From Eledone cirrhosa (taxonomy: Eukaryota), in the NCBI GenBank assembly GCA_964016885.1, contig OZ024743.1, forward strand, positions 317,502,001 through 317,566,000: DNA of 64,000 bases. Reading direction: 5' to 3'. The stretch's first letter is position 1; each line of letters starts with the position of its first letter. The notes under the pieces are model-generated. The model saw only the letters and a list, made by a program, of their open reading frames with translations. It did no database searches and was not told the DNA's origin. Shown here piece after piece: positions 32,961-54,108 of this stretch. Made by a program: the position numbers and the translations under genes.

Positions 32961-32963
<3 letters not shown>

Positions 32964-35900
32964 TATAGACATAGAATATTCGAAAATATTCTGTATGTTT
33001 ATAATAAACATTTTGAAGACCTAATCGCTATAGAATAGAATACGTCACGTATTACAATTAGATTCTCGATAAAAGCAAGGGAAGTAATCTACGCGTTTCA
33101 TTCTTGTTAGAAATCATCAGGACTACATATCCAGTGCTTTTATCGAGAATGACACAGCTAGAGACTTATAGAATACTTAGCTGTGTACAGGAACTGGTTT
33201 GAAAGAGCGGTTGCCGGTCCGGCAGAAATTAGAAATTGGAATAAATGCTCTGAAATAGCGATATATATGTGAATATAGACATAGAATATTCGAAAATATT
33301 CTGTATGTTTATAATAAACATTTTGAAGACCTAATCGCTATAGAATAGAATACGTCACGTATTACAATTAGATTCTCGATAAAAGCAAGGGAAGTAATCT
33401 ACGCGTTTCATTCTTGTTAGAAATCATCAGGACTACATATCCAGTGCTTTTATCGAGAATGACACAGCTAGAGACTTATAGAATACTTAGCTGTGTACAG
33501 GAACTGGTTTGAAAGAGCGGTTGCCGGTCCGGCAGAAATTAGAAATTGGAATAAATGCTCTGAAATAGCGATATATATGTGAATATAGACATAGAATATT
33601 CGAAAATATTCTGTATGTTTATAATAAACATTTTGAAGACCTAATCGCTATAGAATAGAATACGTCACGTATTACAATTAGATTCTCGATAAAAGCAAGG
33701 GAAGTAATCTACGCGTTTCATTCTTGTTAGAAATCATCAGGACTACATATCCAGTGCTTTTATCGAGAATGACACAGCTAGAGACTTATAGAATACTTAG
33801 CTGTGTACAGGAACTGGTTTGAAAGAGCGGTTGCCGGTCCGGCAGAAATTAGAAATTGGAATAAATGCTCTGAAATAGCGATATATATGTGAATATAGAC
33901 ATAGAATATTCGAAAATATTCTGTATGTTTATAATAAACATTTTGAAGACCTAATCGCTATAGAATAGAATACGTCACGTATTACAATTAGATTCTCGAT
34001 AAAAGCAAGGGAAGTAATCTACGCGTTTCATTCTTGTTAGAAATCATCAGGACTACATATCCAGTGCTTTTATCGAGAATGACACAGCTAGAGACTTATA
34101 GAATACTTAGCTGTGTACAGGAGCTGGTTTGAAAGAGCGGTTGCCGGTCCGGCAGAAATTAGAAATTGGAATAAATGCTCTGAAATAGCGATATATATGT
34201 GAATATAGACATAGAATATTCGAAAATATTCTGTATGTTTATAATAAACATTTTGAAGACCTAATCGCTCTTTCAAACCGCTCTTTCAAACCAGTTCCTG
34301 TACACAGCTAAGTATTCTATAAGTCTCTAGCTGTGTCATTCTCGATAAAAGCACTGGATATGTAGTCCTGATGATTTCTAACAAGAATGAAACGCGTAGA
34401 TTACTTCCCTTGCTTTTATCGAGAATCTAATTGTAATACGTGACGTATTCTATTCTATAGCGATTAGGTCTTCAAAATGTTTATTATAAACATACAGAAT
34501 ATTTTCGAATATTCTATGTCTATATTCACATATATATCGCTATTTCAGAGCATTTATTCCAATTTCTAATTTCTGCCGGACCGGCAACCGCTCTTTCAAA
34601 CCAGTTCCTGTACACAGCTAAGTATTCTATAAGTCTCTAGCTGTGTCATTCTCGATAAAAGCACTGGATATGTAGTCCTGATGATTTCTAACAAGAATGA
34701 AACGCGTAGATTACTTCCCTTGCTTTTATCGAGAATCTAATTGTAATACGTGACGTATTCTATTCTATAGCGATTAGGTCTTCAAAATGTTTATTATAAA
34801 CATACAGAATATTTTCGAATATTCTATGTCTATATTCACATATATATCGCTATTTCAGAGCATTTATTCCAATTTCTAATTTCTGCCGGACCGGCAACCG
34901 CTCTTTCAAACCAGTTCCTGTACACAGCTAAGTATTCTATAAGTCTCTAGCTGTGTCATTCTCGATAAAAGCACTGGATATGTAGTCCTGATGATTTCTA
35001 ACAAGAATGAAACGCGTAGATTACTTCCCTTGCTTTTATCGAGAATCTAATTGTAATACGTGACGTATTCTATTCTATAGCGATTAGGTCTTCAAAATGT
35101 TTATTATAAACATACAGAATATTTTCGAATATTCTATGTCTATATTCACATATATATCGCTATTTCAGAGCATTTATTCCAATTTCTAATTTCTGCCGGA
35201 CCGGCAACCGCTCTTTCAAACCAGTTCCTGTACACAGCTAAGTATTCTATAAGTCTCTAGCTGTGTCATTCTCGATAAAAGCACTGGATATGTAGTCCTG
35301 ATGATTTCTAACAAGAATGAAACGCGTAGATTACTTCCCTTGCTTTTATCGAGAATCTAATTGTAATACGTGACGTATTCTATTCTATAGCGATTAGGTC
35401 TTCAAAATGTTTATTATAAACATACAGAATATTTTCGAATATTCTATGTCTATATTCACATATATATCGCTATTTCAGAGCATTTATTCCAATTTCTAAT
35501 TTCTGCCGGACCGGCAACCGCTCTTTCAAACCAGTTCCTGTACACAGCTAAGTATTCTATAAGTCTCTAGCTGTGTCATTCTCGATAAAAGCACTGGATA
35601 TGTAGTCCTGATGATTTCTAACAAGAATGAAACGCGTAGATTACTTCCCTTGCTTTTATCGAGAATCTAATTGTAATACGTGACGTATTCTATTCTATAG
35701 CGATTAGGTCTTCAAAATGTTTATTATAAACATACAGAATATTTTCGAATATTCTATGTCTATATTCACATATATATCGCTATTTCAGAGCATTTATTCC
35801 AATTTCTAATTTCTGCCGGACCGGCAACCGCTCTTTCAAACCAGTTCCTGTACACAGCTAAGTATTCTATAAGTCTCTAGCTGTGTCATTCTCGATAAAA

Positions 35901-36107
35901 GCACTGGATATGTAGTCCTGATGATTTCTAACAAGAATGAAACGCGTAGATTACTTCCCTTGCTTTTATCGAGAATCTAATTGTAATACGTGACGTATTC
36001 TATTCTATAGCGATTAGGTCTTCAAAATGTTTATTATAAACATACAGAATATTTTCGAATATTCTATGTCTATATTCACATATATATCGCTATTTCAGAG
36101 CATTTAT

Positions 36108-36112
<5 letters not shown>
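32961..36112. repeat. Divergent double array of a 310-bp retrozyme-like unit: ~4.2 units (ribozyme on minus, 32961-34269) + ~5.9 units (plus, ~34277-36112)
   Basis: Period 310 (32961, 33271, 33581, 33891, 34201; 34281, 34591 ... 35831); units essentially identical. Confidence 0.95.
34362..34404 (+). ncRNA. Minimal type I hammerhead, one per 310-bp unit (10 copies in total)
   Basis: GTAGTC-CTGATGA-T-TTCT-AACA-AGAA-T-GAAAC-GC-GTA-GATTAC; stem I extended by 16-bp helix ATTCTCGATAAAAGCA/TGCTTTTATCGAGAAT. Confidence 0.9.
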
Positions 36113-36174
<62 letters not shown>

Positions 36175-36179
<5 letters not shown>

Positions 36180-37365
36180 GACGTAAATAAGAAAGTTATG
36201 AAAATTGACTTACTAAAATTTCACTCCAACTAATTAGTTTCTGTAAGGGGATAAATACAGTTACGTAATACCTGTAGAGAAGCCTTACGTCATCAGGGAG
36301 TCTATTCTCAGCTAAGCCACCAGGCAATGCGGGGACACTGGAAGCTTATATAACAATAATTCAGTGGATGGTAAAAAGCGAAAAAATCGAGCGAGGATGG
36401 ATTCTAAGCACTGAAAAATTCGCTGCCTCCTTGGTCAAGTTTTGAATTTCCCACTTGACCAAGGAGGCAGCGAATTTTTCAGAGCTTAGAATCCAGCCCC
36501 GCTCGATTTTTTCGCTTTTTTCCATCCACTGAATTATTTGTTATATAAGCTTCCAGTGTCCCCGCATTGCCTGGTGGCTTAGCTGAGAATAGACTACCTG
36601 ATGACGTAAGGCTTCTCTACAGGTATTACGTAACTGTATTTATCCCCTTACAGAAACTAATTAGTTGGAGTGAAATTTTAGTAAGTAAGTCAATTTTCAT
36701 AACTTTCTTATTTACGTCTTTCATATAATTGTTCTGCATCCCCCTGCATAGAACTACAAAGTTACTAAGACAAAACATATATATCTGCTAGCGTAGGTAT
36801 GCATCTGTATACATATGTCGGTAGATATATTAATTCTTTATATCCTTCTCCAAATTATTTGTTGAGCAAAATTTGCCAAATTACTACTGTGACTGATAGT
36901 AGTAGCTAGGCTCTGTCTTGATAGCACCCCCACTCCAAGCTGGTTAACCTCAGTGTCACGTGATTAATTCTTTTGAATTTGCCACTTGACCAAGGAGGCA
37001 GCGAATTTTTCAGTGCTTAGAATCCAGCCCCGCTCGATTTTTTCGCTTTTTTCCATCCACTGAATTATTGTCATATAAGCTTCCAGTGTCCCCGCATTGC
37101 CTGGTGGCTTAGCTGAGAATAGACTCCCTGATGACGTAAGGCTTCTCTACAGGTATTACGTAACTGTATTTATCCCCTTACAGAAACTAATTCGTTGGAG
37201 TGAAATTTTAGTAAGTAAGTCAATTTTCATAACTTTCTTAGTTATGTCTTTCATATAATTGTTCTGCATCCCCCTGCATAGAACTACAAAGTTACTAAGA
37301 CGAAACATATATATCTGCTAGCGTAGGTATGCATCTGTATACATATGTCGGTAGATATATTAATT

Positions 37366-37370: not shown

Positions 37371-37399
<29 letters not shown>

Positions 37400-37403
<4 letters not shown>

Positions 37404-37516
37404 TGAAACAAAATGAAAACGAAATTTCATTTCTCACTCTTAGTATGGCACTTACTTAAATGTAAGTATGCATGTATACGTACATACATATATGTATACT
37501 AACGTACAGTAGCATG

Positions 37517-37555
<39 letters not shown>

Positions 37556-39200
37556 GCATACAGGTACACATACATATATGCACGTATCAGTTTAGCGGCG
37601 CTTATTATAACGTCGCTTTGTTCGTTTGTAAACAAACTGAACAGCCTGAATTTATGCCATACGGTGTTAAGGCAACCACGTCACCTTTTTGTTCAACACT
37701 GACACAGGAACGATGTACTAGTTTCAAGCTTGTTAGCTATCATCAGCACCGTTTACCCATCTGCCAGATAGTTGAACGTTCGAAAGTATATACTTTCCTT
37801 ATGAAAATTAACGGCTGAGCAGCCTAATTTGCATATTGAGTGAGTTAAATCGGTCAGGCATACCGAAAACGATAAATTGAAACAAAATGAAAACGAAATT
37901 TCATTTCTCACTCTTAGTATGGCACTTACTTAAATGTAAGTATGCATGTATACGTACATACATATATGTATACAGACGTACAGTAGCATGCACATATATA
38001 TATATATATATATACATATATATATACATATGCATACAGGTACACATACATATATGCACGTATCAGTTTAGCGGCGCTTATTATAACGTCGCTTTGTTCG
38101 TTTGTAAACAAACTGAACAGCCTGAATTTATGCCATACGGTGTTAAGGCAACCACGTCACCTTTTTGTTCAACACTGACACAGGAACGATGTACTAGTTT
38201 CAAGCTTGTTAGCTATCATCAGCACCGTTTACCCATCTGCCAGATAGTTGAACGTTCGAAAGTATATACTTTCCTTATGAAAATTAACGGCTGAGCAGCC
38301 TAATTTGCATATTGAGTGAGTTAAATCGGTCAGGCATACCGAAAACGATAAATTGAAACAAAATGAAAACGAAATTTCATTTCTCACTCTTAGTATGGCA
38401 CTTACTTAAATGTAAGTATGCATGTATACGTACATACATATATGTATACAGACGTACAGTAGCATGCACATATATATATATATATACATATATATATACA
38501 TATGCATACAGGTACACATACATATATGCACGTATCAGTTTAGCGGCGCTTATTATAACGTCGCTTTGTTCGTTTGTAAACAAACTGAACAGCCTGAATT
38601 TATGCCATACGGTGTTAAGGCAACCACGTTACCTTTTTGTTCAACACTGACACAGGAACGATGTACTAGTTTCAAGCTTGTTAGCTATCATCAGCATATA
38701 TGTATGTGTACCTGTATGCATATGTATATATATATGTATATATATATATGTGCATGCTACTGTACGTCTGTATACGTATACATATATGTACGTATACATG
38801 CATACTTACATTTAAGTAAGTGCCATACTAAGAGTGAGAAATGAAATTTCGTTTTCATTTTGTTTCAATTTATCGTTTTCGGTATGCCTGACCGATTTAA
38901 CTCACTCAATATGCAAATTAGGCTGCTCAGCCGTTAATTTTCATAAGGAAAGTATATACTTTCGAACGTTCAACTATCTGGCAGATGGGTAAACGGTGCT
39001 GATGATAGCTAACAAGCTTGAAACTAGTACATCGTTCCTGTGTCAGTGTTGAACAAAAAGGTGACGTGGTTGCCTTAACACCGTATGGCATAAATTCAGG
39101 CTGTTCAGTTTGTTTACAAACGAACAAAGCGACGTTATAATAAGCGCCGCTAAACTGATACGTGCATATATGTATGTGTACCTGTATGCATATGTATATA

Positions 39201-39258
<58 letters not shown>

Positions 39259-39308
39259 CATGCTACTGTACGTCTGTATACATATATGTATGTACGTATA
39301 CATGCATA

Positions 39309-39311
<3 letters not shown>
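37400..39311. repeat. Divergent double array of a ~476-bp retrozyme-like unit (~2.7 units minus + ~1.3 units plus, switch near 38695)
   Basis: AATTGAAACAAAATG at 37401, 37875, 38351; inverted from ~38696. Confidence 0.92.
38992..39036 (+). ncRNA. Minimal type I hammerhead of the 476-bp unit (also 37709-37753 and next unit, minus)
   Basis: AACGGTG-CTGATGA-T-AGCT-AACA-AGCT-T-GAAAC-TA-GTA-CATCGTT. Confidence 0.9.
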
Positions 39312-39388
<77 letters not shown>

Positions 39389-40503: not shown

Positions 40504-43500
40504 GTGTCTGTGTGTGCGGAGGTGTGGTGGAAAGGGGAGAGGATGGGTAGGTGTGAAAGGTGGAGGGAGAAGGTGGTGGTGTGGGGAGATGGTGTGTATA
40601 TTAGTGGAGGTGTTAGTGGGATGTGTGTGTGAGGGGGTGTAGGTGGAGCGGGGAGAGAGAGAGGGAGAGAAAGCGTGTTGGGGACGGCGGAGGGAGTGTA
40701 GTGTGCGTGTTTGGATATGAGTGTGTGTGTGTGGTAGAGAGGGTGTTAGTATTAATGATGGTGGGGAGGGGGTTGAATGCGGGTGTGTAAGTGGGGGTTA
40801 GTGGTGGTTCGGTGTGTGGAGTGGGTAGTGTATCGGTGTGTACGTAGGTGTGGGTGGGTGTATGTGATGGTGTGTGTTCGTGTATGTAGGTGAGGGGGAA
40901 GGTAGGTTGGGGGATGTTAGCAATATTAGTTGTGGGGGTGGTCAGATGTGGATGTGTGGGTTGGGGTTAATGGTAGTTATAGGGTGTGTGGATAGTGTGA
41001 GTGCATGTATATATGTACAGGTGGGTGTGGGGAGTGTGGGTCCGCGGGTGCTAGGGGTAGGGGTGGGGATGTTAGTATTATTACTTGTAGGGTGGGTCAT
41101 CCAGGTGGGGGCGGTGAAACTGAGGAGTGTGTTAGTGGGGAATGTGTGTGGGGGGGGGGGGTCGGTCGGTCGAAGGCTAAAGGAATAGGGGTGGGGAGTT
41201 CAGGCCGGGGTATGTGTGGGTCTGTAGGGTGAAGATGGTGTGATGTTCGACCTTGAGGCGGGTGGCGGGTGTCCCATGGCATTGGGTCAGGCTACCGACT
41301 GTGAGGTGGTGGGCGGAATGTCCAGGGGAGCCAAAGTGGCGGGCGATGGGGAACTCCCGTCGAGACGAATATCGCGGAAATGCTCCGTGCTCCTATCCGC
41401 CAGGCGACGTCCAGTCTGTCCGTAGACGAGTTTGGAGGAGGTGCAGCGGAAGGCGTCCCTGACAGAGAGAGAGTGGCCATTGGGACCTTGGAAGGTGGTG
41501 TGTTGGTGATGTGGGAGCAAGGAAGGGAACCGGGGGGGGGAGAAGAGCTGGGTTGGAGGGTAGGGAGCTGCGGACGAGGATGGAGTGGAGATTACGCGCG
41601 CGTTTGAAAGAGGGGGAGGTAAGATGGGGGACGTGGAGGAGTCGGACTGGAGGCGTCGGAAAAGGCGGAGGATGGTGCGGTGGTGGGGTAGGATGGTGGG
41701 GTGGTAGGTGATGGGGAAGGGGATAGGGTGGGTGGGTGTGCAGGGGCGTGGGGTGAGGGTGGTGGAGCGATGGATCGCACGGATGCGAGTGATGGCGGTG
41801 TGGACGAGGGAGGTGGGGTAACCTCTCTGGATGAAATGGCTGACTAGGGAAAGGGCCTGGGATTCGAAGTCAGCTTCTCGGCTGCAGAGGCGGCGGATCC
41901 GGAGGAGTTGGGAGTAGGGAATAGAGTGTTTTGTGTGTGTAGGGTGGGAGGAGGTGAAGTCGAAGTAGGAGTGGGAGTCGGTGGGTTTGAAGAAGGCGGA
42001 GGTGACGAGGGAGCGGTGGGAGGGGTCGATGGCGACGGAGATGTCAAAGAAGTGGACGTGGGTGGTGGAGATAGAGGTGGTGAAATGGAGGGAGGGGTGG
42101 AAGGAGCAGAAGAAGGAGAGAAAGGAGTCAAGATGTTCTCGGGTGAGGGTCGTGGCCCCGATACAGTCGTCGATGTAACGACCATACTGTTCGGGTGTGG
42201 GGCCGGTGTACTGGGAAAAGATTTGGGCCTCAACATGACCAACGAAAAGGTTGGCATAGTTTGGGCCCATTCTTGTGCCTATAGCTACTCCAGCGACCTG
42301 TTGGTAAAACTCACCTGAGAAGGAGAAGCAGTTGAGGGTGAGGACCAGCTCGGCGAGGCGAAGGAGGGTGGGGGTGGAGGGGATGGGGGAGGGACGAAGG
42401 TCGAAGTAGTGCCGGAGGGCACGTAGGCCATCGGCGTGGGGGATAACTGTGTAGAGGGACATAATATCTAGGGTGAAGAGGAGGGGGTGTGGGCCGGGTG
42501 GGAAAGTGAGGGAGTCGAACAGGCGAAGGGCGTGATTGGTGTCGTAGATGTGGGAGGGGAGGGTGGTGACGAGGAGAGCGAGGATGGAGTCAAGAAAGGC
42601 GGAGATAAGTTCAGTGGGGCAGTTGCAACCGGAGACGATGGGGCGGCCTGGGTTGTCTGGTTTGTGGAGTTTGGGGAGGATGTAGATCGTGGAGGTGCGA
42701 GGGGTGCGGACGATGAGGTGGGAAGCGGTGGGAGAGAGGAGGGAGGAGGATACGAGGTGTTGGATAGTGGAGGAAACTTGTTGTTGGTAGAGGGGTATGG
42801 GGTCGGAGGGTAGAGGGCGGTAGAAGAGGGGGTTACGGAGCTGCCTGGGGGCTTCACCGTGTAGAGGTCAGCGTGCCATACCACCACGGCGTCTCCTTTG
42901 TTCGCCGGTTTGATGACGATGTCATCTCAGCTACGGAGGGAGCTGAGTGCGAGGAGTTTGCCCCGTGTGATGTTATGCCGTTTGGAACGGCGGCGGAAGT
43001 CGAAGCGATTTACTGCGCTACGGCAGGCGTCGACGAACGTGTCCAGGGTGCTAAATTGCCCGGATGCCAGCATCCAAGATGATGGTCGTCGGCCCAGAGC
43101 GAGAAAGGGGTCTGGGGCGTTCGGAGCCGGTGGGGTTTGGTGAAAATGTGCCTGTAGCTTGGTGCGTCGCACGAATCGCTCGACATCCGTTCGGGTGCGT
43201 CACTCGTCGTTGCGCGGGGTGTGGGGTATGAAGCGCAGGCCTCTACTGAGGAGTGAGCGCTCGGGTGCGGAGACGGGGAGGACAGGGGGTATGGTGACGA
43301 CAAATGAGGGTGAGGTGGGTGCGGTTTGAGTGGGGTGGGGCGTGGGGGTGATGGGGGGTATGGAGGGGTGTGATAGGGGGAGGGGAGTGTGTGGTGGAGG
43401 GTGGTGGGGATGGGTGTGATGGGTGAGGTGCATGTGGGGGGTCTCGGGAGTGGGGGATAGTGGTGGGGGAAGGTATGGTGGGGTGGAGTATGTGTGGCTT

Positions 43501-43935
43501 AAGTGCTTTGGTGGAGGTGAGGAAGGAGAAGATGTCGTGGTTGAGGTTTTGTATGAAGAGGAAGATGGAGTGGGCGAGGAGGGGGTGGCATGTGGAGTTG
43601 AGGCGGAGGAGGGTGGGGGTGAGTTTGTGGCCAAGATTGAGGAAGGTGGAGAGGGAGGAGCGGAGTGTGTTGTACATTAGGAGGTGCGAGGACCGGGTGG
43701 GGATACGTTTTGTGGAGGGGCAAGTGGAGGGGGAGGCGTGGAAGTGCAGTCGGAAGCCGAGGGGGGTGAGGTGGAGGTGGAGGAAGCGACTGAGGAAATG
43801 GATGTGGCTGGACTGCCGGGTTTTGGCGAAGAGAAGGTAGGAGGGTTGGAGGGCCGAAGGGAGATAGCAGGGTGGGAGGAGGGGCGATGTTTAAGGCGGG
43901 TGTGGAGTTGGTGGAGAAAGGATTTCAGGCTGGAT
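40504..43935 (-). mobile_element. C-rich disrupted PLE (Neptune-like), near full length
   Basis: LSRGLRFIP, MSLYTVIPH, GVAIGTRMGPNYANL, RYIDD, KPTDSHSY; degenerate GIY-YIG. Confidence 0.9.
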
Positions 43936-44119
43936 ATATCTCATCATCATCATCATTTTACGTCCGCTTTTCCCTGCTTGCAAGGGTGGAACGGGAACTG
44001 ATTCTGGCTTGATTTCTACAGCTGGATGCCCTTCCTAACACCAACCTCATTTACAGTGTGGGCTGGCTGCTTTTTTGCCGTGGCACCTCCAGGACTACTT
44101 TGCAGTGGAATGACCCCAG

Positions 44120-44272
44120 TCCCTATCATCTCATTTCTACAGCTGAGTAAACTGGAGCAATGTAAAATAAAATGTCTTGCTCAAGGAAACAACACATCAC
44201 ACGGTCTGAGAATTGAATTCACAACCTTTCGATTGCAAGGCCACTGCTCTAACCACTAAGCCATGTGTCTCC
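44120..44272 (-). mobile_element. tRNA-derived SINE (an RTE-like 3' tail with (CAT)n lies at 43940-44095)
   Basis: Minus strand: GGAGACACATGGCTTAGTGGTTAGAGC (A box), GAATTCAATTCTC, TTCCTTGAGCAAGAC. Confidence 0.7.
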
Positions 44273-44305
<33 letters not shown>

Positions 44306-44375
44306 TACACGCACACACACATACATATATATATATATACACACATAGACACACGATAACAATTAACAGTGCTTT

Positions 44376-45215
44376 TTAGCCCAGCCAATGATCTAAAATG
44401 TCTTGCACAGAGTTGGCAACCAAAACATTCACTGGGAATAACCGGTTGTGCTGGAGTTCATGTACTTTTGCATGTCGTTTGAGCCCTCCTGCTGATTTAC
44501 ATTCTCTACCACATGCTTGGCAAGCCTGATGAGTAGCATCTCCAACAGCAGCCTGGTAGTCAACCACTGGTCTTACTTTATCACTGCGAAGATGACTTTC
44601 GAGTCCAGCTTTGCTGAGGCGGAGTCTCGCACAGACACTGCATGTCATCGCCATAGGAGGACCTTCCCTGTCTGGAAATGCAACAGTAATGCCCTTTCTC
44701 GTATCCCTCTTTACTTTCTTGTATGTGATTCGAGATGCCTCAAAGGCAACTTTCCCCTCATATACAGTTTTTCTCCATTTATTACGATCAGCAGAGATGT
44801 TAGTGTCTTTCAAAGAGGCTCTTAACGAATCCTTATACCTCTTTTTTGGTTTACCTGGAGGTCGTTTTCCTTTAACTAACTCTCCATAAAAGAGTTGTTT
44901 TGGTATTCACACATGCCTTGTACACCTTTACCTTTGTCTTCTTGCATATGTTTCACCGACCCCAGAGCCGCCTTTCTAGCTTTCCGAAAGCATGACTTGC
45001 TTTCCTAATCCTGAGTGGAATTTCATGATCAAGGTTGCTGTATCAATTGACAGTGCTTCCCAGGTAGACAAACTGATCAACCACAACGTTTACCATATAC
45101 ATAGATATTTCGCTCACTCTACTGCTTACCAGGGGCAGGTTGAAACATGACGGCGGTTTTCTTGAGACTGACAGTCAATCCAAGGGCAGTGCAAGTATCA
45201 GAAAATGCATTCATA
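44376..45215 (-). mobile_element. RTE/BovB-like LINE 3' fragments with C-terminal C2H2-like fingers
   Basis: [18 protein letters not shown]; YGEL..GKRPPGKPKKRYKD; CSVC..AGLESH and CQAC..GGLKRHAKVH. Confidence 0.8.
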
Positions 45216-45234
45216 TACGTATATATATATACAC

Positions 45235-45335
<101 letters not shown>

Positions 45336-45363
45336 GATATAGATATATATACATATATATTAT

Positions 45364-45412
<49 letters not shown>

Positions 45413-45457
45413 CACATATATATACATATATATATATACATATATATATACACACAC

Positions 45458-45550
<93 letters not shown>

Positions 45551-45568
45551 TATATATACATATATATA

Positions 45569-45678
<110 letters not shown>

Positions 45679-45679
45679 C

Positions 45680-45710
<31 letters not shown>

Positions 45711-45917
45711 CATATATACAATATATACATATATATATATACATATATATATATATACATATATATATATACATATATATAAGAAAGTAAGTCCATAGAA
45801 TCATTTGATAAAATATATACAGTATTTCTCCTCCCAATCAGCACTATCAACCACATCAAAAATCAATTAAACGAGGCTATAAGTTTAAAATGTACTTATG
45901 CATATACATCACGCAAT

Positions 45918-47890
45918 CTCCGCACCCTCCTCGTCCACAGCTCTCTACCCCCCAACCCACGCTCCCCCCCCCCCCCAGGTTCCTTTCCCTGTTCTAGGCC
46001 CCGCTGCAACACCTGTCCCCACATCACCAACACCACCACCTTCCAGGGTCCCAACGGCCACTCTCTCTCTGTCCGGCATGCCTTCCGCTGCACCTCCTCC
46101 AACCAAGTCTACGGACTTCGCTGCACGGAGTGCAGCGCGACTTACGTCGGACAGACGGGACGTCGCCTGGCGGACAGATTCACTGAGCACCTCCGGGATA
46201 TTCGTCTCGGTGGTAGTTCCCCCATAGCCCGCCACTTTGGTGCCCCTGGACATTCCACACGCCATCTCACAGTCTGTGGCCTACTCCAATGCCACGGAAC
46301 ACCCGCCAATCTCCTCAGCGTTGAACAAAGAACCATCTTCATCTTACAGACCCACACTCCCCCCGGCCTGAACTCCCCACCCTTATTCCTTTAGCCTTCG
46401 ACCGCTCCCCCCCCACACATATTCCCCACTAACACCACTAACACACCCCTCCTTTTCACCACCCACCCCACAACTAACAATACTAACACCTCCACTCCAC
46501 CCCTCATCCGACCACCCTTCCCCAACTAACATACTCCTCCCGCCCTCCTTATCACACACACAAACCCACCGGCACATATATACACGCGCTCACACTAAAC
46601 ACACACCCTACTACCACCACTAACCCTCACCCCCACACATCCACCCCACCACCCCGCAACTAACATCACTAACACCCCCTGACCCCAAGCACACGAACAC
46701 ACGCACCCACTTACACCACCCACCCTACACGCAACTAACATCACTAACACCCCCCAACCCCACGCACACGTACACACACACCCTCTTACACCACCAACTC
46801 TACGCACCCTACCACCAATGACCCCCACTCACACCCGCATTCAACCCTTTCTCCACCTCCTGTATACTAACACCCCCTTCATCAAACTACACACACACCA
46901 GTACACCGCACTCCCTCCATTGACCCCCACACCCTTTCTCCAACACTCACTCATCCCACTAACACCTCTACTAATATACACCCCCCACCTCACTCACTAC
47001 TTTCACACCTACCCATCCTCGCCCCTTTACCATTCCACCCTACTGCTGCTATGCCCTCTGACCACCTCCCAGCACACACAGACACACAGCACTCCTACTG
47101 CCTTGACCACTTCCTGTTGCGCGCGCACCCCACATCTCCTCTCTTCCGACCATCTATTCACGGATTCCTCGTATGTGGACCTTGACCGCGGAATCAACTA
47201 CCATCCTAGGATTTTACCAACCTTTCCACCACATCTTCTTACGGAATCACCTTCATGACTCACCCACACACACACCCCAAACAATTTTTTTCCCACACGC
47301 CACCTACACACACAACACGCTTAAACACCACACACACTTGCGTTCCGCCACATATTTACACATTCAGCCTCCGGATTCCTCTCCCCCCACCCCTCTATCC
47401 ACACACGCACACATACTCCGACCTACACCCCACCCCACACACACCTCTTCCTGAACATGCAACCCCGTTCTTCCCCCAACCCTAGCTTTCACATACACAG
47501 ACACACACACACACACACGTACACCTACACACACACACCACCTTCAGCCCTCCGCGCTCGGACACCCCGTCTCCCTCTCCCCACTCCACCCGCCACCACC
47601 CCTACACGTCCCACATCCTTCCATCACCTGTTTTACACCATTTTAATTTTATTTTGATCATGTTTTTATTTTTATTTTCATTAGCACCGTTTCCTCCACG
47701 CCCTTTTTGCTATATGTCTCTCCACCACACCCCTACACACCCTTTGAACTCTCTTCCCACACATTTTTCACCTGAAGAAGGGCTTATGCCCGAAACGTCG
47801 TTCCCCACCACCACCCCACTCTCAAGAGCGTGAAATTAATAAACATTCGTTGTACTGCCTCTCTGTTTTGTTCCTGTTCAAATTTTCCAT
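45918..47890 (+). mobile_element. 3' end (GIY-YIG + C-rich UTR/pLTR) of the 40504-43935 PLE family, opposite orientation
   Basis: CNTCPH..CTECSATYVGQTGRRLADRFTEH; similar to reverse complement of 40500-41560. Confidence 0.85.
47768..47802 (+). ncRNA. Minimal PLE-type hammerhead
   Basis: CTGAAGA-A-GGGC-TTAT-GCCC-GAAAC-GTC; stem I weak. Confidence 0.7.
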
Positions 47891-47913: not shown

Positions 47914-48004
<91 letters not shown>

Positions 48005-50842
48005 CCAAAGAGGGCTCGATAAGGATAAATATATATCAAATATATAAGAACCGTAGAGCAAATATTTATTAAAATAACATATTAAGGTTTAAGCAAAGAA
48101 TCGCTGCTTTCACCCTTAACGGGATCTTCTGAAACTAACAAAGTCAATCTGTAAACGCAGAAGTGGATATTTCAAAAAACGTTGCAGCCGGAGGAAGACA
48201 GGAAGACGATACTTTGGTTCGTGGACACGTTCGCTGGCAAAGAACGGGAAAAAACGAATAAGATACGTCATTAATAGGAGCGGTGAAAAACAATTACGCG
48301 CAAAGACAGAACCACGTTTATGGTATAAAAGAGGTCGTAGACTAAAGTTCTCTTAGGTGGTTCATAGAGACGTTCTCTGGCAATGAACGAAAAAAACGAA
48401 GATAATACGTCATATGTGGACCATAGAGAACAATAGCACGCAAAGACAAAACCACGTAAATGGTATAGCAGAAGTCGTAGACTAAAATTCTAACTAGGAC
48501 ACCGAATGAATCTCCGCTACAGAGTTAAGAACAAAGTAAATAAATACAATACAGAAGTAATAGAAATAAATAAATACATACACGCAAACAAATACGTACA
48601 TACACAAGCATACGCAAAAACACTTACCATAGGTATACAAAACCACGCACATATAAATATGTGTGTGTGTGTGTGTATGCGTGTATACAAATAAATAAAT
48701 AAATAATTATATAAACGTATATAAATAAATAAATACGTAAATAACAAGCGCACACACATACCTACATGTAAATACACGAATGTTCGGAGACGTAAGTCAA
48801 CCAAAACATGAAGTACACATATACACACACCCTACATACGTACGAACCTGCATACTCACACAGACACAAAACTCCCGTATACACATAGCCAAACCATATG
48901 TACCAGAATAAAAAAAATAAAAAAAGTTTATACGCCATAACATAAACAATCAAATATACGTACGAGAAGGTATACGTACCTTCACGAAACATACGGGTAA
49001 TATATACTTACCTATGCAAATAAGTAATGGTATAAACAAAACATATACTTAGCTCCCACATCAAGACGTAACATATCCACGTATAGATCGTACTATCCAT
49101 TAGGGTATAACGTGGGGCTGTAATACAGGAAAGTTTTGTGCAATTTATGTTTACAAGCCGAAATTGCCTCAGATTTTTTGTTTAAGATGTGGTCTGTGGC
49201 GTATAGTATTTCCAGGGCCTCAGCGGCGCAGAGGTCACAAGGTCTTTTATTTCCGTTATACGATCTAGCCCTAGCTAGGATCTCCCAGTGTAACTTATAT
49301 TGGGTGTGGTTGTCTTTTAGACTCCATATATAAGCTGAAAGTAACGTCATATTCCTTCTTAGAGGGTAACGAAAAGAATGGGTATGCGTGTAAAGACGCT
49401 GCTTGAATCTATTGGCGGTTAACCCTATGTAGGCCCTACGGGACGTGGGTGTTACAACCTTACATTTGTAGACAATGTTACTAGAGAGGCAATTCCCGGA
49501 TAGGGGCATTCAGCCCGATTCCTACAATTACAGTTAGTACTAACTACAGGGTTGCACGTGTTCCTACGGCTAGGTAGTTTAGCTAAATTTGAAGCTGTGA
49601 TGTTATGTGCAAGGTTAGGAGTCGTAGAGTAAGAAATTTTAATAGTATTTCAATTAAAAATTTTACTATATTTATGTGTAGGGGGAAAATGCTTCGTAAT
49701 AAGGGAAAGAAAGATCTTAGCTAATGGTGTGGCCACCTCCATATTATATGGTGGGTTATACCAACAAATGCGACGGGATCTATTTCTTCTAGGTCTATTT
49801 TCGTACTCTGTATATGCTACCTTATCGACAAATCCACTTCGAGCAAGAGCTTCATTGTAATAAGTGGAGTGGTCGTTGAAAATACGCTCGTTGGTGGAAA
49901 GAGGGGAAAGCCTCAACGAAACGTTTCTTACCAGGTTCTTGGTTATGCTGGCAGGATGGTTGGAATGCTTACTTATGTAATTAAGCGTATCATTCGGCTT
50001 TCTATACGAGTAATACAACCCATTCAATAAATTGAGGGTAACGTCAAGGTAATTAACGACCGAGAGATTGGCCTCAACCTGTATAGAGAGGTTGAAGCCT
50101 TTAAAGAAGGCTGTGAGTTCTTTTCTGAACCTGTCGAAAGCACGAGGTCCGCACTTAGTCATGGTCAAAAGACCATCGTCACGGTACAAACCACCGCCCG
50201 CGTTGGGGAATTCGTTCTTGATAGAGAAAAGAAGGAAAAGGTCGATAAGATTAGTAACCTCCGCAGAATCACTAGCGCCCATGCTCACGTCGAATGGGGT
50301 GCTATGAGATTTTTTAATCCAAATAGAGTCGTCGAAATTAATCACCGACTTTCGGGCATTGAGGATGACATCAACTTCGAAATCCTTAACCACTGTGAGT
50401 GTTTTAGCGAAATTGATAGCTCTAAGGAGAATTGGTAAAGTGATGGAGGAGTAGTAATTGTTGATGTCGAATTGGATAAAACGGCAATGTTCCTTGTTAC
50501 ATATGCCGTTGAACCAATCAATCACCGCGAAAGAATTGTTCCACAGTGCAAGAGGGGCCAATCTTCTGATTTCAGGTATAATTCTATCAAGAATCGTTTT
50601 ACTAAGTCTACCTAAATCGGACTTCGTAAGGTTAATAAGCCGAATAGAGGGGTTGTTCGGAAAATTGGAGCGATTCTTTGCTTAAACTTTAATCTGTTAT
50701 TTTAATAAATATTTGCTCTACGGTTCTTATATATTTGATATATATTTATCCTTATCGAGCCCTCTTTGGATTTTAGTCTTGAAATTTATTATTATTAATA
50801 TTTAGCTCCCTCGGTTGAGCACTCTACTGACTTATATTCATC

Positions 50843-52972
50843 ATGCAGAAACAACATCTGAATATTTCTACAAAGAACATACCCGTACCAAGCAGGAAAT
50901 CATACCTAAAACTCCTGATACAGAAAACAGACGCGTTCATTAAAAGGTTGCGTTGGCGTGCCTTTTATTTCGATAACCCGCAAAAAGCAGACAACAAACA
51001 GGATAAATGTGGATTTAAAACCTATAATAACCCCCCGTGTAACCCAGCATTGCTACCCTTCGAAAATGATGTCTTGGAACTCAGTCGGAGTATCAAATTT
51101 CTGAATAGGAGCAATTCCTTCCAGCAAGACCTGAAGAATAGAATTCGTTCTATTAAGGATTCTAATGCCGTGCACGTCCATTCCGACAAAACTGGCAACC
51201 TATATCAAGTGGAACGCAGTACTTACCATCAACTACTACATAATGCTGTAACTAAGGATTACCGTAAAACTAATCGGTGCGTCATCAATGAAATCAACGA
51301 TGCTGGGTTTAAAATCACATCTGATCTCAACATCCTGGACCGGACCGAACCTCTGGACCCTATTTCTCCCCACTTTACCCTGAAGGATCACAAATCCAAT
51401 TTTCCGAACAACCCCCCTATTCGGCTTATTAACCCTACGAAGTCCGATTTAGGTAGACTTAGTAAAACGATTCTTGATAGAATTATACCTGAAATTAGAA
51501 GTTTGGCCCCTCTTGCACTGTGGAACAATTCTTTCGCGGTGATTGATTGGTTCAACGGCATATGTAACAAGGAACATTGCCGTTTTATCCAATTCGACAT
51601 CAACAATTACTACTCCTCCATCACTTTACCAATTCTCCTTAGAGCTATCAATTTCGCTAAAACACTCACAGTGGTTAAGGATTTTGAAGTTGATGTCATC
51701 CTCAATGCCCGAAAGTCGGTGATTAATTTCGACGACTCTATTTGGATTAAAAAATCCCATAGCACCCCATTCGACGTGAGCATGGGCGCTAGTGATTCTG
51801 CGGAGGTTACTAATCTTATCGGCCTTTTCCTTCTTTTCTCTATCAAGGACGAATTCCCCAACGCGGGCGGTGGTTTGTACCGTGACGATGGTCTTTTGAC
51901 CATGACTAAGTGCGGACCTCGTGCTTGCGACAGGTTCAGAAAAGAACTCACAGCCTTCTTTAAAGGCTTCAACCTCTCTATACAGGTTGAGGCCAATCTC
52001 TCGGTCGTTAATTACCTTGACGTTACCCTCAATTTATTGAATGGGTTGTATTACCCGTATAGAAAGCCGAATGATACGCTTAATTACATAAGTAAGCATT
52101 CCAACCATCCTGCCAGCATAACCAAGAACCTGGTAAGAAATGTTTCGTTGGGGCTTTCCCCTCTTTCCACCAACGAGCGTATTTTCAACGACCATTCCAC
52201 TTATTACAATGAAGCTCTTGCTCGAAGTGGATTTGTCGATAAGGTAGCATATACAGAGTACGAAAATAGACCTAGAAGAAATAGATCCCGTCGCATTTGT
52301 TGGTATAACCCACCATATAATATGGAGGTGGCCACACCATTAGCTAAGATCTTTCTTTCCCTTATTACGAAGCATTTTCCCCTTACACATAAATATAGTA
52401 AAATTTTTAATTGAAATACTATTAAAATTTCTTACTCTACGACTCCTAACCTTGCACATAACATCACAGCTTCAAATTTAGCTAAATTACCTAACCGTAG
52501 GAACACGTGCAACCCTGTAGTTAGTACTAACTGTAATTGTAGGAATCGGGTTGATTGCCCTCTATCCGGGAATTGCCTCTCTAGTAACATTGTCTACAAA
52601 TGTAAGGTTGTAACACCCACGTCCCGTAGGGCCTACATAGGGTTAACCGCCAATAGATTCAAGCAGCGTCTTTACACGCATACCCATTCTTTTCGTTACC
52701 CTCTAAGAAGGAATATGACGTCACTTTCAGCTTATATCTGGAATCTAAAAGACAACCACACCCAATATAAGTTACACTGGGAGATCCTAGCTAGGGCTAG
52801 ATCGTATAACGGAAATAAAAGACCTTGTGACCTCTGCGCCGCTGAGGCCCTGGAAATACTATACGCCACAGACCACATCTTAAACAAAAAATCTGAGGCA
52901 ATTTCGGCTTGTAAACATAAATTGCACAAAACTTTCCTGTATTACAGCCCCACGTTATACCCTAATGGATAG
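50843..52972 (+). CDS. PLE RT-GIY-YIG polyprotein, 709 codons with a single in-frame TGA at 52412-52414
   Basis: SDKTGN, IRLINP, FIQFDI, FDVSMG, GLYRDD; frame continues NTIKISYS..CNCRNRVDCPL..VYKCKV..AYIGLT to the stop at 52972. Confidence 0.85.
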
Positions 52973-53928
52973 TACGATCTATACGTGGATATGTTACGTC
53001 TTGATGTGGGAGCTAAGTATATGTTTTGTTTATACCATTACTTATTTGCATAGGTAAGTATATATTACCCGTATGTTTCGTGAAGGTACGTATACCTTCT
53101 CGTACGTATATTTGATTGTTTATGTTATGGCGTATAAACTTTTTTTATTTTTTTTATTCTGGTACATATGGTTTGGCTATGTGTATACGGGAGTTTTGTG
53201 TCTGTGTGAGTATGCAGGTTCGTACGTATGTAGGGTGTGTGTATATGTGTACTTCATGTTTTGGTTGACTTACGTCTCCGAACATTCGTGTATTTACATG
53301 TAGGTATGTGTGTGCGCTTGTTATTTACGTATTTATTTATTTATATACGTTTATATAATTATTTATTTATTTATTTGTATACACGCATACACACACACAC
53401 ACACATATTTATATGTGCGTGGTTTTGTATACCTATGGTAAGTGTTTTTGCGTATGCTTGTGTATGTACGTATTTGTTTGCGTGTATGTATTTATTTATT
53501 TCTATTACTTCTGTATTGTATTTATTTACTTTGTTCTTAACTCTGTAGCGGAGATTCATTCGGTGTCCTAGTTAGAATTTTAGTCTACGACTTCTGCTAT
53601 ACCATTTACGTGGTTTTGTCTTTGCGTGCTATTGTTCTCTATGGTCCACATATGACGTATTATCTTCGTTTTTTTCGTTCATTGCCAGAGAACGTCTCTA
53701 TGAACCACCTAATAGAATATCAGTCTACGACCTCTTTTATACCATAAACGTGGTTCTGTCTTTGCGCGTAATTGTTTTTCACCGCTCCTATTAATGACGT
53801 ACCTTATTCGTTTTTTCCCGTTCTTTGCCAGCGAACGTGTCCACGTACCAAAGTATCGTCTTCCTGTCTTCCTCCGGTTACAACGTTTTTTGAAATATCC
53901 ACTTCTGCGTTTACAGATTGACTTTGTT

Positions 53929-53979
53929 AGTTTCAGAAGATCCCGTAAAGGGTGAAAGCAGCGATTCTTTGCTTAAACT
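53929..53979 (+). ncRNA. Hammerhead variant (CAGAAGA core) in the pLTR; mirror copy 48086-48136 (minus)
   Basis: AGTTT-CAGAAGA-TCCC-GTAAA-GGGT-GAAA-GCA..TGC-TT-AAACT. Confidence 0.65.
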
Positions 53980-53995
53980 TTAATCTGTTATATTA

Positions 53996-54108
<113 letters not shown>

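Follow-up and report, generated by a model that had tools for sequence, protein, structure and literature searches.

How two arrays of a 310-bp repeat, each unit carrying a hammerhead ribozyme, come to lie back to back between TA-rich tracts, and from what template they were copied, is the question posed by positions 32,961 to 36,112 of a 64,000-nucleotide stretch of the Eledone cirrhosa genome (assembly GCA_964016885.1, contig OZ024743.1, positions 317,502,001 to 317,566,000 of the forward strand; hereinafter, the window). The layout of this locus and of its relatives across the genome identifies, with high probability, a retrozyme that was inserted by priming at two ends in the manner of Penelope-like elements (PLEs). 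Taken as a whole, the locus is best interpreted as a very young non-coding retrozyme insertion, probably generated by a borrowed PLE reverse transcriptase (RT), with both cut ends of the target primed on one RNA, probably a 310-nt circle.

The left arm of the locus (32961..34269, minus strand) consists of 4.2 units with four hammerhead cores, and the right arm (34276..36113, plus strand) consists of 5.9 units with six cores; the two are located between (TA)n target tracts at 32893..32960 and 36114..36175, to which no strand is assigned. Tandem Repeats Finder detects a period of 310, with 4.3 copies at 32951-34269 and 5.9 copies at 34276-36113. All five full units of the right arm are identical, and the left arm contains a single substitution, at 34123, along with a C-to-T change at the outermost TA junction. 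A sequence-only reading of this DNA had claimed about 4.2 left and 5.9 right near-identical units, next to no divergence between them and (TA)n at both outer ends, and all of this is borne out by the repeat finder, the comparison of the units and the ten cores. Cleavage is predicted on the plus strand after 34398, 34708, 35018, 35328, 35638 and 35948, and at four more sites on the minus strand. The arrays are non-coding, with no open reading frame (ORF) of 100 codons inside them except for one frame in a TA run that overlaps the left edge, and their G+C content is about 0.35. When the unit is numbered from window position 34279, the inner ends of the left and right arms correspond to unit 181 and unit 308, respectively. 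The outer 3' end of the left arm is the AUAUAUAU sequence of the unit (unit 252-259), with C251 replaced by the T of the target; the right arm ends at unit 285 and thus includes, at the right outer end only, an additional 26-nt tail (unit 260-285; 36088..36113, plus strand). These two sites are denoted no-tail and tail, respectively.

The same arrangement recurs throughout the genome. The exact 34-nt ribozyme core yielded 4,567 matches in the 3-Gb genome, a lower bound given that common haplotypes differ within this stretch, compared with 0 matches to a control pattern; the exact ends were found 876 times for the tail (unit 285) and at least 1,094 times for the no-tail site (unit 259). We fetched 110 further stretches, of which 10 were picked by the core, 20 by both ends, 20 by the tail end and 60 by the no-tail end; together with the window, they contain 113 insertions with approximately 1,059 units. 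Back-to-back pairs account for 95 of the 113 insertions, and for 8 of the first 10 loci that were picked by the ribozyme core alone; the counts of single-armed insertions are too high, owing to an assembly gap (L033), a fetch that ended too early (L076) and second arms too small to pass the 30-nt filter (L079, L144). The median arm lengths are 1,513 and 975 bp (44 pairs). Substitutions confined to one unit amount to only 3.7e-4 per base across the approximately 1,059 units, which indicates that the insertions are very recent, as had been proposed for the window locus. A particularly long insertion, at G000:C1:97461495-97476486 (L076), extends over approximately 15 kb by the coordinates of its paired ends, with 27 units in the fetched part.

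The outer ends of the arms are strikingly regular. They are located either at unit 259, where AUAUAUAU is followed by TA, or at about unit 285 (79 exactly at 285 and 17 at 277-292), that is, at two sites 26 nt apart, and each two-armed insertion has one end of each kind (67 of the 67 pairs that were resolved and had not been selected by both ends). Among the 91 insertions that were not chosen on both ends, there were 67 tail/no-tail pairs and no tail/tail or no-tail/no-tail pairs; the remaining 24 include one tail/246 pair, 5 insertions with an end outside the fetched sequence and 18 scored as single-armed. Likewise, on part of contig C1, all 43 pairs of divergent neighbouring ends within 20 kb combine one tail and one no-tail end. 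Of the 47 insertions inspected, all except one are flanked on the outside by (TA)n. Target duplications of 15 bp and 34 bp are apparent at L034 and L032, respectively, and pure TA flanks are uninformative in this respect. In L034, where the target is not TA, the end is shifted to unit 246, inside the 15-bp target duplication, and a target T replaces the C251 of the template in 636 of the 1,094 no-tail ends (the other 458 lack it). These two observations suggest that the primer at the 259 end base-pairs with the RNA, whereas a start at 285 would need only about 2 nt. The pairing of a tail end with a no-tail end across the insertions supports the earlier proposal that both target ends were primed.

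Both sites belong to an end block (34496..34563, plus strand) that consists of an 8-bp hairpin, AUAUAUAU and the 26-nt tail, and is common to the 310-bp unit and a related family with a unit of approximately 320 bp. The hairpin has a UUCG loop in the 310-bp unit, and a GCAA loop with a compensated stem in the related family. This block is a candidate recognition and priming signal for the RT.

In comparison with known systems, the back-to-back arrangement, with its tail on one side only, matches the standard footprint of PLEs, and the 26-nt one-sided extension corresponds to the PLE tail. PLE insertions in (TA)n targets have been described that contain 5'-truncated copies in inverted orientation and have a tail on one side (PMC8557442), and a purified PLE protein has been found to nick and extend both strands, with two internal RNA start sites that define the tail (PMC11167929). 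The 310-bp family displays the inverted 5'-truncated copy, the one-sided tail, the (TA)n target and, where visible, the target duplication, and resembles the endonuclease-bearing PLEs (Poseidon, Neptune, Hydra and Naiad; PMC8557442, PMC11167929) in these features as well as in the two internal start sites and the nearby hammerhead. Unlike those PLEs, it encodes neither an RT nor a GIY-YIG endonuclease and hence is not an autonomous PLE; its tail is 26 nt long compared with the 30-40 nt described; its arms hold many head-to-tail turns of the unit; and none of the PLE sequences searched could be linked to it by similarity. There is also a similarity to twin or dual priming of L1 (PMC2837659), where both nicked strands prime and the inverted halves are joined at microhomologies inside the target duplication. 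However, in L1 each half derives from a separate stretch of a linear mRNA that does not overlap the other, and inversion is one variant among the outcomes, whereas in the 310-bp family both halves contain repeats of the entire unit, the position of the second site does not vary and the inverted layout is the rule.

With respect to the element itself, the 310-bp family is an animal retrozyme of the known kind that lacks long terminal repeats (non-LTR retrozyme). Such elements are defined as non-coding tandem units of approximately 150-450 bp and below 50% G+C, two or more of which, in a row, contain a type I hammerhead, and have been described in coral, mussel and axolotl (PMC7229834), and in Xenopus and other animals (bioRxiv 10.64898/2026.07.22.740005). 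The family agrees with them on all points that could be tested: a 310-bp period, 4 and 6 consecutive cores, low G+C content, a predicted self-paired fold of the monomer, dispersed copies and the presence of PLEs in the genome. Like the published animal retrozymes, it combines non-coding tandems of approximately 300 bp, one type I hammerhead per unit and PLEs alongside; whereas those are direct tandems in the accounts consulted, almost all insertions of the 310-bp family are back-to-back pairs whose two ends are fixed. The word "inverted" is absent from the main text of PMC7229834. Furthermore, circles have been demonstrated for published retrozymes, whereas a circle of the 310-bp unit is a prediction, and retrozyme repeats are reported to lack a conserved motif that would point to the helper (PMC7761336). 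In the literature covered, which excludes subscription journals and bioRxiv supplements, we found no report of an inverted retrozyme layout, of twin priming in PLEs or of haplotype and selection evidence for retrozymes.

That a PLE RT copies a retrozyme circle into tandem cDNA has already been proposed (PMC7229834; bioRxiv 10.64898/2026.07.22.740005); what the present family adds is evidence from the genome in favour of this so far untested scheme, in which a Penelope enzyme copies a circle. According to PMC7229834, PMC8557442 and PMC11167929, the movement of retrozymes and the origin of tandem and inverted PLE insertions with a one-sided tail are open questions. With over a thousand near-fresh insertions that carry locus-specific haplotypes, the footprint ties the retrozyme to the PLE machinery, and the family places the two start sites to the base and speaks for a single template shared by the arms. 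With its start sites known, the 310-nt RNA also lends itself to experiments on rolling-circle target-primed reverse transcription in vitro.

The nature of the template can be addressed through the variation among the units. There are 37 substitution haplotypes in 100 insertions, corresponding to a chance identity of approximately 12%, and both arms carry the same haplotype in 64 of 65 informative insertions. Altogether, 38 distinct variants are array-wide, 121 are confined to a single unit and 14, in 6 of the 113 loci, are intermediate. From these patterns, we favour the copying of one template into both arms, through a bottleneck of a single unit. In L058 and L154, private variants are fixed throughout both arms, over as many as 19-24 units; because a linear multimer cannot fix a private mutation over so many units, a monomer circle copied for many turns is preferred. 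Judging from the sequence patterns, rolling-circle copying of a circular template is probably the best explanation of these arrays.

Substitutions within the ribozyme point in the same direction. In unit 84-126 of the end-selected loci, none of the 9 distinct array-wide substitutions hits the core or breaks a stem, compared with 14 of the 16 one-unit substitutions (Fisher p = 2.7e-5); over the whole unit, the numbers of damaging substitutions are 0 of 38 and 14 of 110, respectively (p = 0.02). Array-wide changes spare the ribozyme, and therefore, the copies that spread seem to need it intact. Such selection on the core matches cleavage and circle formation better than it matches the use of uncleaved transcripts as templates.

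The ribozyme is of type I, with the first plus-strand copy at 34362..34404 and the predicted cut after GUA at 34398, and comprises a 6-bp stem I, CUGAUGA, a stem II of 4 bp behind a U-U pair, GAAA and the palindromic stem III ACGCGU. It was assigned on the basis of the core and the stems, given that Rfam hammerhead families gave 0 matches at the gathering score in the window. In the predicted fold, the ribozyme is located inside a 16-bp helix that prolongs stem I (34338..34423, plus strand); this extension and two further hairpins named in the sequence-only reading are all present. The folding energy of the linear unit differs from that of shuffled sequences with z = -5.0, and the circular fold of the monomer that had been suggested as a check is predicted to be stable (-67.8 kcal/mol, z = -4.0 against 100 shuffles). 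Within one copy, stem III consists of 2 bp with a 2-nt loop, which is under the minimum for a hairpin, whereas two copies yield a 6-bp duplex. As the earlier reading held, such a stem would be consistent with cleavage as dimers, a mode described for hammerheads (PMC4209133), in which case a monomer circle with a single hammerhead would not cut itself.

In contrast to the outer ends, which are located at two fixed sites, the inner ends are uniformly distributed over the unit (186 ends, p = 0.79). Within 5 nt of the cut site, 4 inner ends were observed compared with 6.6 expected, and this lack of enrichment implies that the templates do not end at the cleavage site. A linear monomer released by cleavage was rejected as the template because copying from site 285 would then yield no more than 165 nt, with ends at unit 121. 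The arms are not mirror images: the inner ends are 0-155 nt apart in register, and the longer arm can be on either side. Of the 48 junctions, 28 show an overlap, in which case overlaps of 1-2 nt may be over-called by BLAST, 5 are blunt and 15 contain inserts that are all different. In the window, the inner junction (34266..34291, no strand; a 13-bp repeat at 34266-34292 according to Tandem Repeats Finder) consists of a 4-nt microhomology, CGCT, common to the inner ends of both arms, and a 6-nt templated insert, CTTTCA. Together, these produce the 13-bp duplication noted previously at this switch, which is real but specific to this locus. An origin as a target duplication or a feature of the family was rejected, inasmuch as other junctions are all different, and the duplication may have arisen through the 4-nt microhomology, a short extension and slippage back. 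At L037:2999-3270, 272 bp of unrelated GC-rich sequence is caught between the arms.

Under the scenario that we favour, the arrays would be transcribed, paired hammerheads would cut the multimer into monomers and a host ligase would close the circle, a step suggested by the behaviour of known retrozymes and by the selection on the core. A PLE endonuclease would then introduce staggered nicks in both strands of a (TA)n tract, as the 15-bp target duplication at the one non-TA site suggests. One 3' end would start at unit 285 with about 2 nt of pairing and the other would anneal to AUAUAUAU at 252-259; here, the end positions are observed and the priming is deduced from them. Each enzyme would circle the template and stop at random, in keeping with observed arm lengths of 0.1 to over 19 turns, and the two cDNA ends would be joined via microhomology, sometimes with a templated insert, as seen in the junctions. 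In its most specific form, which we put forward tentatively and at somewhat less than even chance, each insertion would be the record of two PLE RTs, primed 26 nt apart from the two nicked strands, each completing several turns of a single shared 310-nt circular RNA. If so, rolling-circle reverse transcription in an animal would be proven from genomic sequence, and the inverted repeat and one-sided tail of PLEs would reflect ordered two-site priming on a single RNA.

Several observations weigh against this reading, and some of them lend support to other explanations. Stem II is closed by U-U instead of a standard pair, and only 1 of 9 Xenopus dimers tested in vitro cleaved (bioRxiv 10.64898/2026.07.22.740005). 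The selection test leaves out indels, among them two array-wide 1-nt insertions in stem I; the share of ends located exactly at 259 or 285 is inflated because most loci were chosen on the end motif; and assembly polishing can erase differences between units. Two RNAs transcribed from a single source locus would likewise give arms that agree in haplotype. No autonomous PLE with the end block, and no significant match to the pLTR of such a PLE, was detected in a search that covered 30 loci of one Hydra-type family, 60 end-block loci and 1.14 Mb of fetched sequence, a small part of the PLEs of this genome. Partial or periodic variants occur in L036, L037, L076, L169 and L199, two haplotypes are present in L069, and the two arms of L075 share, at equal rank, a variant limited to one unit, which requires a template of at least two different units, or conversion. 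These exceptional loci show either some array turnover after insertion or multimer templates. The same PLE two-end priming could have used a linear, uncleaved multimeric transcript of a parent array, with the ribozyme serving only in expression or stability. In vitro, uncleaved RNA is the dominant substrate of the one PLE protein studied and hammerhead mutations have no effect on insertion (PMC11167929), and L075 and the lack of a pile-up of inner ends at the cut site fit as well. Nevertheless, we deem a linear template unlikely: it cannot lengthen arrays or fix a new mutation in all units, as is seen in L058 and L154; dead ribozymes should yield more template, yet none is array-wide; and L075 contains the only substitution that the two arms have at equal rank (2 of 64 arm-level entries), and with it the only one-unit variant that looks inherited.

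Still less plausible is growth at the DNA level, whereby a short two-armed PLE-type insertion came first, and unequal crossover and palindrome conversion later extended the arrays and made them homogeneous. The authors of bioRxiv 10.64898/2026.07.22.740005 favour amplification in place, starting from a PLE terminal repeat, and the five long arrays with periodic or patchy variants, together with L069, are compatible with growth of this kind. However, intermediate variants are rare among copies that are extremely young, multi-unit arms on both sides are the rule, and the selection on the ribozyme core would be left unexplained. We give virtually no credence to an assembly or long-read fold-back artefact or to the fold-back of a single cDNA, notwithstanding the abundance of (TA)n-bounded inverted repeats in the window and the assembly gaps in two fetched loci. 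Fold-back is excluded by the non-mirror arms, either of which may be longer; moreover, the outer ends are two different fixed sites, the haplotypes are locus-specific, and the junction of unit 259 with TA is found in one short-read contig set (X2) that possibly comes from the sample used for the assembly itself.

The long arms of L036 and L169 contain linked variants with periods of 7 and 6 units, respectively, each set including a ribozyme-damaging change; either a multimeric circle or a later block duplication could produce such periodicity.

The window contains ORFs for RT and GIY-YIG, and an inverted pair of a Hydra-type PLE (48002-53999) in (TA)n with a one-sided tail of approximately 60 nt and the DKT, RWR and CxCx5C motifs. 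Of the ORF of this PLE, 82 copies were scored with 95-100% identity, many with intact 713-aa frames. The autonomous PLE pairs in the window show the same tail/no-tail asymmetry as the 310-bp family. More generally, the window is densely packed with insertions of PLEs and retrozyme-like elements, arranged back to back in (TA)n and mostly tail/no-tail where inspected (for example, 22514-28247, 32281-32732, 36176-36727 and 40531-47028).

Other tandem families are present as well. At 37398-39318, there is a second retrozyme-like family with a 476-bp unit, tandem and inverted arms and outer ends approximately 56 nt apart, whose hammerhead retains the geometry, with compensated stems, a palindromic stem III ACUAGU and a U-U pair closing stem II. 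The ~320-bp relative of the 310-bp family is older and more diverged (L060, L062, L077, L081-L110, L201-L230; 3,072 exact matches to one 20-mer); it has the hairpin-AUAUAU-tail block in common with the 310-bp unit and ends at equivalent sites, and many copies carry TTGATAA instead of the CTGATGA core. Three near-identical 596-bp tandem units in (TA)n at 20065-21889 contain no hammerhead core in a simple scan. A direct repeat with a 530-bp period at 28800-29737, in which a pattern scan matched no canonical CTGANGA, includes GAAACGCGTA, with the same stem III and cut triplet.

Finally, the 310-bp unit is present in 20 sequencing runs under 17 organism codes, with no RNA run among those listed; eight of the runs were examined. 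In one of these (X2), it occurs in very many contigs at very high depth. Six of the eight contain a single 340-nt contig (310 + 30) at a depth of 10-365, an outcome that a tandem and a circle give alike, and five of these six also contain pieces of an unrelated neighbouring repeat. Raw Hi-C data filed under the organism code of one run with the unit yielded 0 reads, a zero that carries no weight as a test. The occurrence of the unit under other organism codes most likely reflects trace host DNA rather than horizontal transfer.
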